A stretch of 64,000 nt of DNA from assembly GCA_046563655.1 (NCBI GenBank), contig CM102286.1, positions 1 through 64,000 of the forward strand, given 5' to 3'. The notes under the pieces were generated by a model that did no database searches, had not been told where the DNA came from, and saw nothing but the letters and a program-made list of their open reading frames with translations. This stretch comes from Yuukianura sp. NJ FZ-2021. Its lineage: Eukaryota. Shown piece after piece: positions 5,625 through 16,622 of the stretch (position 1 is the first letter of the stretch; each line of letters opens with the position of its first letter). The translations under genes and the position numbers were made by a program.

Positions 5625-5815
5625 CAGAGGATTAGCCCTCCGCATTCACAAAAAAAGAAGTTGTGGAGGAAGTTTTGTCCACTCGTCGGTCCGCACCAGG
5701 AATTGAGATTCACATAAATACTGCAGAGGAGTAAGATCCAACTCCTCCAAGGGGTAAATCCAACTCCTCTCGCTCTCATATAAAATGGAAGTCAAGCCAA
5801 AATCACTTCATTCTA
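5625..5815 (+). promoter_or_regulatory. Module B copy (TATA/Inr promoter-like) upstream of the l(3)mbt-like gene, with a remnant of module C
   Basis: GGTCCGCACC..GAGATTCACATAAATACTGC..ATCCAACTCCTC..CTCCTCTCGCTCTCATATAAAA (TATA at 5779), then Inr-like TCATTC at ~5808. Matches 16480-16620. Confidence 0.7.
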
Positions 5816-6020
5816 CAGCCACAAGAACAAAAAACGAGAATCTAAAGTTGTTTAATTAAGGGTCTCGTACTAAGATTAATTGAGTTCCGGTTAATCTTAA
5901 AGCATCACAACTACATCGCTTCAGGTAAACCCATTGTGTGTATCTAACTGGATAGTCAAAGTGCTTCCATGTTAGTCCTTATTGAATGTTTGTTTACTAA
6001 TGTGTTGTTGATTAGTGACA

Positions 6021-9000
6021 ATGAGCGGTGTTCCCGGTGAGGGGAGTGGAGTGACGAATGTTACATCTGATGGACATGGCCACTACGTTGTCTTCCATCA
6101 TCCGCACCAAGATCAAGTGACAGTGGACGCTGGTCAGATTCACCTCAACACACAACTGCAACCTAATCCTCCACCCATCAACGAAACAGTGGTGGGTTCC
6201 GCTAAAGTCAACTACGCAACACTCTCCTCCGTTCCCAATTTCCAGCAAATGAACAACATTTACATGGAGGGGTTGCCTGGCAACTTGGACGCTGCATCAG
6301 GAACGGTAGTTGTGGGCTCGGATAACCAATTGTACAACATTCAAAACAACGGAGACACTCTGCTCTTCTGCCCCTCCACTCCAGACCATGGACCTCTCAA
6401 TCTCATGCCGCTTATTGACACGACCAATCCCGGCACTGCTCCAGCCCAAATTCATGTTAGTCTCTTCTCATCACAATTAATTTTTAGCCTAATTGAGAAT
6501 TCATTCTGGATTTCTTTTCCGTAGTTTCCAGTGGGGAGGTTCTGGCTGGGAACGACGTCTACGAACTGATTGCTCTTCCCTCTGATTCCTCAATCACCTC
6601 ATTCACCGACCAACCAATCCTCAACCTGGCAAGTGGAGGAAACTACGGACAAATCCTTCCGATTTCCCAGCAACAGGATCCCAACACCCAGTACGTGTTC
6701 AGTGTTCAGGATGAGCATGGAATGGCCACTGTGAGTACTGTTGGACTACAACATCCTGTCCCTCTCTCTGTTGTGGACAGCTCTTCCATTCTCACATTCG
6801 TCCCAGCCTCAACAGTCACTACAATTGTTAGTCCAAATTATAGTTCGGTCCTTTTATCAACTTCAATAATTTTACTATCATATTTTTCCCAGGCACCATC
6901 CGTTGTTTCACAAATTGACACCGTCACTCCTTCGACACAGCAAGCAAAGGCCCAACGTACTTATATCACCGTTGTGGATGATTTCAGCGATCTAATTAAA
7001 ACTGAAGAGACTGGAAGCGGGAACAGGACGTGGGGATTTGTTGATGAGGAGCAGGACGGACTTAGTTTCAGTGTGGAATCACAAGGACATGCTGAGGAAG
7101 AAGGTGCCTCACAGTTTGAAGGTGGGGATGCTGAAGACTCCAAGGACTCTGTGGAGATCATCGAACAGGAAACTGTTGGTGCTTCCAGTGAAAATGGAGG
7201 TGGACTTAGTTCAGTCAAAAGCAGCCTCTATGACCAGATCCAGTCAGCATTCCACGGGATAGACGGAAATGGAGTGGAGCAGAGCATCCGAGTCATGGTG
7301 GATGGGCAGTACTACGAAGAAATAAGTGTGAGGCACTCAGCTGACACTCTTCTTCCCACTATCCCAACAAATATTGGATTCAACTTTGATTCAACGACGG
7401 TCAGTTCATATTTAAAAGAAACAGTATTTCCATCAACAACTTTTAATTTTTTTGTACTTGTACAGATAAAGAAGATTTCGTTTCCAGTTTCCACTTCTTT
7501 TCAAAATAGAACTCGTCTCCCCCAGTTGAAAATTGGAGGAATTCTGCCCAAAGGTCCCACTCAACTCCGCCCAAAGTCTCTGCCGTCTCTGTCGAAAAGA
7601 CCAGTAAGTCTCTGGATTCTGTTCAACTTTCTTAACTTGAACTCTTTTCTTGTTAATTTTCCAGCCTCAATCAGTCCTTTCCACTGGTCCGAAGAATCTG
7701 AGTGATTTCACAACCATTACTTTGAGGAATAGCATGGAGAAGGCAACTTTGGAACTTCCTCCAGCTCCTGTTCTCGTGGAAAAACCGAAACTTGTTTCGA
7801 CGCCCCCAAACAATCGACCGCCGGTTCGCCTTCCAGGAATTCCTCTTGTGGATTGGGTCAACGGAGTTGGGAAATTCCCTGGGCTGCCTGGAAAGGTAAC
7901 CCACCAAAAATAGAATTAATTGTTCCAAGTCATTTCACTTTTCCTCTTGTTTTCATTTTAGATTTGTGTGGATGAAACTTCTGGAATGATGGAGGTGGTT
8001 GATTTTAATGCTGCAGAGCATCAACGCCGAGTGAGAGTTCCTCTATCGGCAGTCAAGGAGCAACCGAAGGCTGTGAGGAAGTTCGAGTACAGCAAAATCA
8101 AACCAGTCTCAACCAGTATCCTACCGAAACCAACACTTCCCACTAAGGAATCCGCCAATCCAAAGCCCGACATTCCATCTCACGATTCTTCGGAACAACC
8201 GAACGCCCGGGAGAGTGAAAAGGAGCAAAGTTCCGAACCATGCGTTACGTCAAAGAAGGAGGAGAGTGTGGACGTCACTTTTTGTGTCACTTGTGGAACA
8301 TTGGCCACCAAGGACGTGGAATTCAGTGGAAAAAGATGCAGAAAATGTATTCAAGTTGAGGAGGAAGAAACCGCTGAGCCTGAAGAGGAGTCTCCAGCTA
8401 CCAAGTTTAAAATTCCCAAGGGAATCACAATCACAAAAACATCAAAACGACAAAGTTCCACCAATGTTTCTTCTCCTGAATCTTCCAAACCCAGAAGGCT
8501 CCTCAGACTCAAACAAGATCCAGAAACAGAAACTGTTCCTAAGTCTACGGATGGAGATGGGAAGAAGTCATTGACTTTGCCAGTGCTCAAACTTGAGCCT
8601 CCTTTGGATTCAGTTGGAATCACAGTCACTCCCATTTTCCAGACGCCTGGTGCCGAAATGAAAGGAGAGGGAGATGAACCTTGTTCCAGCAAGTCAGTTG
8701 GGGTGGGTACCCTTGGAAAACGGCGCAAGTACCACCGTCGATCCTTGATTGAGCAGAAGAAGATGAAGAAGAAAGGAATGGACAAAGGGCCAGTGCGGAA
8801 GAGAACTCTGGAGAAAGTGCTGAGCACGAAGACGAAGCATGCGAAGAAGAGTCTCCTGGGATCTGGCTCTTCTCTGAGTGATCCCAAGTCGCCTGGACCA
8901 GATGAAGTGACGGATTCAGACAAAGAGAAAACTGGACATGAGTCGAGCGGGGAAGTTTCGGCCGAACCGAAGCGATGTGCTCCACTAATTGAATTCAACT

Positions 9001-9239
9001 GGCCCAAGTATTTGCAGGAAACAAACTCCAAGTCAGCTCCATCCAGATTCTTCCGCCAACCAGCCTTTCCTGGTCCAAATCCCTTCAAGTAACTTTATTT
9101 TCCAACAACTAAACTAACTAAACATACTACTTTGCTAATCTTGTATTTTTAAGGATCGGGATGATGCTGGAAGCAGTGGATCCTCAACATCAAAGCCTCT
9201 TCTGTGTTGCCAACATTGTGGATGTGCAGGGCTATCGTA
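6021..9239 (+). CDS. L(3)mbt-like MBT-repeat chromatin protein, multi-exon, 3' end lost in gap
   Basis: Long low-complexity N-terminus and a CxxC...CxxC motif (FCVTCG...RCRKC). First MBT repeat reads FNWPKYLQETNSKSAPSRFF...PNPFK|IGMMLEAVDPQHQSLFCVANIVDVQGYR. Short GT-AG introns. Confidence 0.8.
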
Positions 9240-9339
9240 NNNNNNNNNNNNNNNNNNNNNNNNNNNNNNNNNNNNNNNNNNNNNNNNNNNNNNNNNNNNN
9301 NNNNNNNNNNNNNNNNNNNNNNNNNNNNNNNNNNNNNNN
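9240..9339. other. Assembly gap (100 N)
   Basis: Run of N. Confidence 1.
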
Positions 9340-15975: not shown

Positions 15976-16322
15976 TGCGAGTCAAATCAAAGTGACTAAT
16001 TCATGTCCACCCTACCTCCCTTGACCGCTGACCTTCACCTAACCAATCCCTATCCAACTCCACATGCTAAATGACACAAGGCGCTATTCAAATGAAATAA
16101 AATGCGAAATGGTCCTCACCTTTTGTCTTTAGATGATAAGTTGATGAAGGCGATATTCCACCAACTCCACGATCGTCCTTCAAACTCTCCACTCCAAACA
16201 ATACGAGATGATCTCTTGATTAACCAACTAATTACTTACAGGAAACCAACAATTAAGTACTTTTAAACACTAGAAATTAAAACTGCTTCTTTCTTGTGTC
16301 TTGCTTTAATTGTTGGTTAATA

Positions 16323-16454
16323 ATTTCAAAATGATTTCCCGCACTTTTGTGTCCTAATTCTCGGAAAAAAGAGAAAGTACAGATGAGGTTATCGGACTAT
16401 TAGACCCTGCTCCATTTTGAACTTGAGACAAAGTGCGGGAAATCAGTTTGAAAT
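16323..16454. promoter_or_regulatory. Module C palindrome between RAD51C and maelstrom (E2F-like GCGGGAAA and CHR-like TTTGAA in both arms)
   Basis: ATTTCAAAATGATTTCCCGCACTTTTGTGTC ... GAGACAAAGTGCGGGAAATCAGTTTGAAAT form a ~30-bp imperfect IR around a ~70-bp core shared with 43015-43075, 45960-46020 and 56240-56300. Confidence 0.7.
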
Positions 16455-16477
16455 AAGTAAACAAATAATTCAAAAAA

Positions 16478-16622
16478 ACAGCTTGTTCGCTCTCTCGGTC
16501 CGCACCCTGGACGAGATTCACATAAATACTGCGAGAGCTGGATCCAACTCCTCGGAAGGGTAACTCCTACTCCTCTCGCTCTCATATAAAAGGAAACACA
16601 AACCAAAATTTCCTCAGTCCAC
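16478..16622 (+). promoter_or_regulatory. Module B, TATA/Inr promoter-like region upstream of maelstrom
   Basis: TATAAAAG at 16585 and a TCAGTC Inr at 16614. Related copies at 5680-5815 (+), 45755-45905 (-), 42908-42962 (-, partial) and 56060-56180 (-, diverged). Confidence 0.75.

Follow-up and report, generated by a model that had tools for sequence, protein, structure and literature searches.

Promoter-like cassettes with a histone-type core in front of unrelated genes near chromosome ends of Yuukianura sp. NJ FZ-2021

Background

Promoter networks that derive from repeats are usually traced to transposons. [quoted passage not shown] Here we describe a promoter-like sequence, module B, in the genome of Yuukianura sp. 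NJ FZ-2021 (NCBI GenBank assembly GCA_046563655.1). The window, i.e., the whole stretch of DNA analysed, comprises positions 1 to 64,000 of contig CM102286.1 (C4 in our numbering), forward strand. In this window module B lies upstream of a maelstrom-like gene (mael) and of a partial l(3)mbt gene. As in CERP2/CELE2, a repeated element with mirrored motifs is, here by prediction, the promoter of many unrelated genes, often in divergent pairs. The worm elements are characterized by thousands of non-promoter copies, MITE ends and germline specificity, whereas the Yuukianura sequence is present in tens of copies, mostly at gene starts near chromosome ends and beside housekeeping genes, and partly matches a histone promoter of its host.

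Chromosome ends are known for subtelomeric duplicon mosaics, in which gene fragments are duplicated and rearranged among the ends; the common unit here is instead a predicted promoter before intact, unrelated genes. In T4-type phages the PeSL elements are mobile regulatory cassettes, combining a sigma-70 promoter and a terminator among non-essential genes (PMC2839356). Similarly, recombination between repeated promoter cassettes seems to have reshuffled flanking genes in the one assembly studied, giving elongase and l(3)mbt chimeras, but the animal cassette would serve RNA polymerase II (Pol II) and stands beside conserved cellular genes. Tandem E2F/CLE and CDE/CHR elements are bound by DREAM, and human RAD51 is an E2F/CLE gene (PMC5716687). 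The arms of module E, the partner of module B, likewise carry a TTSSCGC-type site and then TTTGAA; unlike in the described DREAM elements, homology between genes extends here over about 150 nt surrounding the motif. With replication-dependent histone genes, the animal's own included, the sequence has in common a homologous TATA/initiator (Inr) core (H2B) and an upstream motif (H4, H2A), yet no histone reading frame follows B and the downstream genes have introns. The Drosophila H3-H4 promoter alone recruits histone-locus-body factors ectopically (PMC5588930); the core of B is of the H2B type, for which that source does not imply such recruitment. In human genes a histone-like promoter structure, not copied sequence, has been modelled (PMC2880410). 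Judged by titles and the beginnings of abstracts, literature searches, also on Collembola, gave no description of histone-promoter copies that drive unrelated genes. From its sequence, the cassette is probably a variant of the repeat-derived promoters with a histone donor.

Results and discussion

Module B upstream of mael and l(3)mbt

A blastn comparison of 5367-6100 with the window aligned 5686-5821 with 16495-16627 at 80.9 % identity over 136 columns (E 1e-28), which rules out chance similarity of the two stretches. The TATA boxes start at 5779 and 16585, the Inr-like motifs TCATTC and TCAGTC have their A at 5810 and 16616, and the distance from the T of TATA to the Inr A is 31 nt in both copies. 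GT donors (5925 and 16725) and start codons (6021 and 16984) were read from the sequence downstream, and the leaders behind both copies are predicted non-coding first exons. A preliminary description had reported this arrangement at both genes, with TATA about 29 bp upstream of an Inr-like TCAKTC, followed by leader, GT donor and gene; the shared module and the order of its parts are confirmed, with a spacing of 31 nt. Focused core promoters of Drosophila with TATA and Inr have the TATA box about 30-31 nt upstream of the Inr A. B has the sequence geometry of such a Pol II core promoter, and a spacing of 31-32 nt was observed in 8 of the 12 B copies with a TATA box that were tested. Module B forms the right half of a two-way cassette of about 330 nt with module E as the left half, the two being joined back to back in most cases; in an alignment of 13 copies, similarity stops just past the Inr. 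The cassette and gene features of the window are:

5623-5647, plus strand: short remnant of module E, the remainder replaced by satellite
5648-5815, plus strand: module B copy 1, with an H4/H2A-type motif at about 5686-5698, a 16-nt core at 5705-5720 and an H2B-type core promoter (TATA 5779, predicted start 5810)
5810-5924, plus strand: non-coding first exon of l(3)mbt, predicted from the sequence
6021-9239, plus strand: 5' part of l(3)mbt, residues 1 to about 945 of the 1592-aa model on contig C7; an assembly gap interrupts the first MBT repeat
15181-16066, minus strand: RAD51C, its transcription leading away from E; the genome search gave no other full-length close match
16303-16466, unstranded: module E, with inverted 35-nt arms at 16313-16347 and 16430-16464, each an E2F-like site and then a CHR-like hexamer
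16474-16628, plus strand: module B copy 2 (TATA 16585, predicted start 16616)
16984-19193, plus strand: mael, nine coding exons, open 548-aa model
42899-43139, minus strand: 5' half of B (42899-42983) plus E; a UBX-domain gene begins past E on the plus strand
45755-46086, minus strand: complete E+B copy, B aimed at a module A (see below); no sense gene found
56031-56393, minus strand: diverged E+B copy opposite a module A; an NAD-binding open reading frame (ORF; weak Pfam match) begins past E

The minus-strand B copy at 45755-45907 is 86 % identical to the mael copy and thus closer to it than the l(3)mbt copy is. A reading of the cassette as a structured RNA was rejected, since Rfam, applied at the gathering score to the whole window, returned a tRNA only and no match at the cassette. 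Metagenome contigs scanned with a 25-base B pattern yielded 0 loci.

Distribution of module B and the genes behind it

The genome comprises 98.7 Mb in 22 contigs, with 93.0 Mb in eight large contigs. All genome-wide counts were obtained with blastn and exact patterns and are lower bounds. The 16-nt core of B gave 22 exact and 7 one-mismatch matches, against 4 for the control. Of the 22 exact cores, 21 were no more than 250 kb away from a contig end, in zones representing 4.3 % of the eight large contigs; the remaining one is located 64 kb from a telomere-repeat array at a gap. Some seemingly internal cassette clusters are not internal: one on C5 follows the telomere array at the gap, and one on C1 ends in satellites and a gap.

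Thirteen distinct contexts were distinguished downstream of B copies with a TATA box; a possible copy at C1:3.9176M, its TATA uninspected, was left out. Two contexts lead to mael and l(3)mbt, six to other genes and five to no sense gene found. The six genes are a GMC oxidoreductase, a fatty-acid elongase, DCN1 and a short-chain dehydrogenase as well as, more distant from B, a weak BAR-domain match and a mitochondrial carrier. Three of the contexts without a sense gene run into an opposed module A; the other two, read by eye, meet the 3' end of a gene on the opposite strand, and their 14 and 11 sense ORFs had no Pfam match. The Pfam scans covered 128 of the 330 listed ORFs of the window, 141 of 183 ORFs on the B side and 241 of 320 on the E side. 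Where DCN1, elongase, dehydrogenase, GMC oxidoreductase and RAD51C are called intact, this refers to Pfam coverage and reading by eye, with splicing unchecked. Compared in three segments, the B copies of mael and l(3)mbt are 65/83/71 % identical, while the mael copy and the copies without a sense gene reach 73-75/83-84/84-91 %.

The preliminary description had explained the shared module as a dispersed element co-opted as a common, possibly germline- or sex-specific promoter, and had proposed a genome search for B with a test of the downstream genes. This interpretation is partly supported: the element is dispersed, has promoter geometry and sits at gene 5' ends. Germline or sex specificity and a regulon of mael and l(3)mbt are not supported: only two of the thirteen contexts concern mael or l(3)mbt, six belong to other, metabolic or housekeeping genes, five have no sense gene found, and the mael copy is no nearer to the l(3)mbt copy than to the copies without a gene.

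Module E and the genes it faces

Module E is partly palindromic and was also found alone, between head-to-head genes. ORFs leading outward from E matched more than 30 different Pfam families, often at the first positions of the family. Named by our own reading of the Pfam families, the genes include RAD51C, TFIIE-beta, CWC15, POLA1, TAF9, an SMC/RAD50 protein, DHDDS, sulfite oxidase, GOSR2, BCS1L, metaxin, DMAP1, UBX and others. For RAD51C and CWC15 a single full copy each was found, and for POLA1 a single N-terminus (lower bounds); all three adjoin E. Two contiguous stretches of 200 kb contained 11 E sites, of which 10 had an outward Pfam match within 1.5 kb, one of them weak. Because E+B faces many ordinary genes, it is probably no germline-only switch.

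Both arms of the E copy beside mael contain the TTSSCGC site (16324-16342 and 16435-16453), and the E arms combine an E2F-like site with TTTGAA or TTTCAA. The spacer between the E2F-like site and the CHR-like hexamer is 4 nt if the site is read as an 8-mer and 5 nt by the 7-mer of PMC5716687. The composite of both motifs had 49 matches in the genome against 0 in the control: 16 at E copies, 2 at a weak E relative and 31, uninspected, elsewhere. Exact E-arm matches numbered 30 (control 0). Thus the short motif occurs genome-wide, whereas the long homology of E is confined to end-like domains. A weak two-armed E relative accompanies a dynamitin gene present twice on C5 (2.19M and 4.85M; L118:1402-1553, L155:2539-2695) and is a possible ancestral form of E at an internal site. 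The neighbouring genes NRDE-2, RAD51C and mael occupy 10780-19193 of the window, and fragments of the NRDE-2/RAD51C pair were found again behind E on C7 and C8.

Relation to the histone promoters of the animal

Opposite some of the cassette copies, the window holds a further sequence, module A, a look-alike of the H2B promoter by sequence comparison:

42389-42550 and 42747-42895, plus strand: two module A copies
45381-45545, plus strand: module A, matching an H2B promoter at 130 of 155 nt
46969-47125, plus strand: module A
55722-55869, plus strand: module A

Aligned to H2B upstream regions, module A reached z scores of 24-53 (100 shuffles for each histone alignment) in four of five regions tested, with up to 130 of 155 nt matching; the fifth region is an interrupted copy rather than a promoter. 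The comparison identifies module A as a longer, about 155-nt copy of the H2B promoter. The last 53-68 nt of the two window B copies had 40-49 matches to H2B with z 7-17 (about 78 % over about 58 nt), compared with z 0.7-4.5 for H2A. The match takes in the spacer between TATA and Inr, in which H2A and H3 differ. By this alignment, the last 58 nt or so of B are homologous to the H2B core promoter of the animal. A TATA-core pattern of B and module A occurred 89 times (control 3) and stood upstream of six of the seven H2B-class matches; among these were sites directly upstream of canonical H2B genes, the ORFs of which were read, in clusters with H4, H2A and 5S. The upstream motif of B, GGTCCGCAC, searched as a 13-nt pattern, had 28 matches (control 4), of which 10 lie in histone clusters, 11 at known B copies and 7 at uninspected sites. 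By eye, the H3 promoter has a pre-TATA motif of about 23 nt in common with one B copy, and an E2F-like site. No histone reading frame was present downstream of B among the ORFs scanned, nor did the cassette sites have a histone-family match.

The histone clusters at C1:8.8-8.95M, C3:0.66-0.79M and C3:4.45M (L143-L147) have, read by eye, H4, H2A and H2B on one strand and then a 5S-like gene; one H2B is broken just after the start codon by an insertion of about 1.3 kb. On C5, at 2.7-3.5M and 9.6-10.25M (L138-L142, L150, L151, L156, L157), the TATA core recurs in a dispersed family of 146-nt doublets that also has GTGCGGAC motifs.

Copies of l(3)mbt and mael

The l(3)mbt piece of the window, 5366-9239, is bounded by two gaps of 100 N. 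A complete l(3)mbt gene is present on C7, with a 1592-aa model of three MBT repeats, a C2HC finger and a SAM domain; it stands behind E+B, and B alone separates E from the first exon of this intact gene. The C7 copy has the domain set of L(3)mbt and L3MBTL1-3-4, whereas the window copy reaches the start of the first repeat before the gap. In clean exon blocks the two are 95-97 % identical, and through the C7 copy the identity of the window gene is well supported. Five sibling B-l(3)mbt copies lie outside the window, each truncated or scrambled. Probably the C7 gene has several broken duplicates, the window piece among them. On C5, a paralogous end extends from this satellite and phosphatase fragment to the TFIIE-beta exons with no l(3)mbt in between. 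Together with the gap-bounded piece, this makes the nearness of l(3)mbt and mael in the window a matter of scaffold placement. Two RNA pieces of l(3)mbt had no splice joint and differed at four letters, one matching C7 only, one two broken copies and two no copy; with such a mixture they are not assigned to a single l(3)mbt copy. Over 42 nt, the l(3)mbt leader (5874-5915) and the leader of the phosphatase fragment are 79 % identical. An MBT gene at C8:10.43M, which we take to be Sfmbt-like, was rejected as a B-less parent of l(3)mbt, with no DNA similarity and 28-49 % identity in the repeats. Other MBT loci, not identified gene by gene, are at C7:9.38M, C5:4.58M, C2:2.06M and C2:8.83M.

The mael model has a Pfam HMG_box_2 match of 23.9 bits (cut-off 22.4; E 7e-5) and a Maelstrom match of 21.7 bits on one exon and 22.1 bits with its neighbours (cut-off 22). 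An N-terminal HMG box and a MAEL domain are present with weak scores, and the assignment as mael is moderately supported. Contigs from one RNA run show the introns 17296-17365 and 17614-17689 removed by splicing. A second mael-like gene lies on C5; it has a 670-aa model with 27 % identity to the window mael over 143 columns (E 7e-11) and no cassette match in 8 kb. On C4, a 5'-truncated mael copy is without first exon, ATG and B. As to the proposed check for copies lacking B, two mael copies are free of it; the complete l(3)mbt on C7 has E+B.

Origin and function of the cassette

Segment by segment, the B copies are mosaics of each other. Upstream of the core, one elongase copy matches the window l(3)mbt copy at 96-100 % identity; downstream, it matches the other elongase copy at 94-100 %. 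The 60 nt upstream of the C7 l(3)mbt are 95 % like a C6 copy and 72 % like the window copy, while the downstream part is of the l(3)mbt type. Provided that the one assembly is right, these mosaics would represent crossovers inside B that swapped the downstream genes, which makes recombination among chromosome ends the likeliest mechanism. The repeat that contains module A has a ragged 5' end with no common terminus in 8 copies. Mosaics and ragged repeat favour duplication plus recombination over a transposon, a passenger or a germline regulon. In our favoured explanation, to which we give somewhat better than even chances, promoter pieces were duplicated to chromosome ends and spread there by ectopic recombination and conversion, and they serve as a general-purpose rather than a germline-specific promoter. 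B would be a member of a small family of promoter-like pieces among unrelated genes in gene-rich chromosome ends. The pieces would have reached the ends as duplications at the DNA level; ectopic recombination and gene conversion would then have spread and reshuffled them, so that promoters are kept alike while flanking genes change. Where the cassette fills a short gap between intact genes, as between RAD51C and mael or at the C7 l(3)mbt, it would be the working promoter, with transcription leaving E in one direction and B in the opposite one.

A non-autonomous transposon could instead have captured the H2B promoter, inserted preferentially near chromosome ends and been co-opted as promoter, as in CERP2/CELE2, with recombination only reshuffling the copies later. 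The internal inverted arms of E (19-35 nt), the related core in 146-nt doublets at dispersed internal sites of C5, with a downstream Pfam match in 1 of 8 scanned, and the position of module A within a 0.9-1.2-kb repeat all agree with such an element. Homology, however, runs past these arms and fades at the predicted starts on both sides, and the A repeat has no common 5' end. A large excess of non-promoter copies, as in the worm elements, was not observed either: E copies off gene starts are rare (1 of 11 sites without an outward Pfam match). We consider a transposon origin unlikely, although it is the strongest of the competing explanations. Less probable again is that B is mostly a passenger in subtelomeric debris, its TATA/Inr being a recent leftover of the histone promoter and the E arms or gene-specific sequences being the real promoters. 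In its favour, five of the thirteen B contexts have no sense gene found, truncation or scrambling affects the five B-l(3)mbt siblings beyond the window, and an E arm faces mael. Against this stand the TATA-Inr distance of 31-32 nt, kept in 8 of 12 copies despite 10-30 % divergence of the surrounding segments, the end of similarity just after the Inr, and the intact C7 l(3)mbt with B alone between E and its first exon. The germline- or sex-specific promoter that would tie mael, l(3)mbt and others into one regulon is, in our view, improbable and the weakest of these alternatives. It would account for the position behind B of an intact mael and of the sole complete l(3)mbt found; the second mael-like gene without B would permit an expression split between paralogs, and a histone-type promoter could be strong in oocytes. 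The six other B-fronted genes are metabolic or housekeeping, though, and the B copies of mael and l(3)mbt are not closest relatives of each other. In Drosophila, moreover, L(3)mbt represses germline genes in somatic cells (PMC9535798, PMC5963868), so germline-only expression is not expected.

Several observations weigh against duplication and recombination of a working, histone-derived promoter. In 5 of 13 contexts no sense gene was found, so that part of the copies may be inert. In the elongase, another TATA-like word follows about 90 nt after the TATA of B, and at the mael locus the E arm aimed at mael is an alternative promoter candidate. The four short contigs of one RNA run (share 0.08) include 0 over a promoter, first exon or 5' end, a lack of cover that is no evidence in itself. 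The figure of 10 of 11 E sites comes from stretches chosen for their cassette matches in a gene-dense genome, with no control at random positions, and the statements on only copies found are lower bounds of genome searches and no proof of single copies. On the histone side, E did not align with the histone promoters (z at most 2.9) and was rejected as histone-derived. The alignment of B with H4 is short, with z 2-7 in the two named copies and -1 to 7 over all, two others being not significant; for the upstream part of B, common factor binding and descent are therefore indistinguishable. That the sequence passed from histone genes to the cassette, and not the other way, is deduced from the ancient role of these genes rather than from a rooted tree. 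Finally, the internal C5 doublets, with a downstream Pfam gene (SNAPC1) in 1 of 8 scanned, fit a mobile element better than end-to-end exchange.

The chromosome end and its other features

The window is the left end of its contig and includes the following landmarks:

1-295: telomeric CCTAA repeats, an arthropod-type telomere
3755-5633: 172-bp subtelomeric satellite, broken by a gap as well as a gene fragment, the last unit adjoining the first B copy
5266-5365: assembly gap of 100 N, the left border of the piece with B and the 5' half of l(3)mbt
9240-9339: assembly gap of 100 N, followed by the TFIIE-beta 3' exons

The fragment at 4730-5265 is the 5' part of a CTD-type phosphatase gene with a DLDET motif (by eye). 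Read by eye, the TFIIE-beta 3' exons at 9340-10312 have a TAA in frame at about 10266, as opposed to TGG at that place in the C5 paralog; all three genome matches of this family are near chromosome ends. Long inverted repeats at 21514-22577 include one perfect pair of 136 nt. A block of 55-bp and 56-bp tandem arrays at 47158-52677 recurs at C1:3.954-3.958M and C5:2.322-2.327M with 86-95 % identity. The tRNA detected by Rfam lies at 63275-63347 on the minus strand, and a tRNA-like stretch seen by eye at about 3425-3515 (near 3450) was unreported by Rfam. In the middle of C5, an N gap is followed by a 660-nt CCTAA array and an 11-kb satellite of 50-bp units (C5:2222809-2234394); this is a chromosome end joined internally, through fusion or scaffolding. 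The observed/expected ratio of CpG was mostly 0.45-0.8 in cassette domains compared with 0.85-1.1 at six internal gene loci. GpC was also lower in the cassette domains, thus the low CpG does not clearly reflect methylation.

Conclusions

A more far-reaching proposal is put forward only tentatively and, on present evidence, is rather to be doubted: copies of a histone promoter may be working promoters of non-histone genes at chromosome ends, among them the sole complete l(3)mbt found and one mael gene of the two, and would put these genes under control of the histone type (S-phase or oocyte). The ends would then be an exchange pool: crossovers in the cassette would let genes swap their promoters, and the promoters of unrelated genes, some of them essential, would undergo concerted evolution. 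An inactive cassette would be subtelomeric debris of modest interest. What sets it apart from transposon-derived networks is a core that seems to come from a histone promoter of the host, and a spread that seems to have gone through recombination among chromosome ends. If the cassette is active, it would offer a natural experiment on two questions: can a histone core promoter bring histone-type regulation to genes with introns, and can unrelated essential genes have promoters that evolve in concert?

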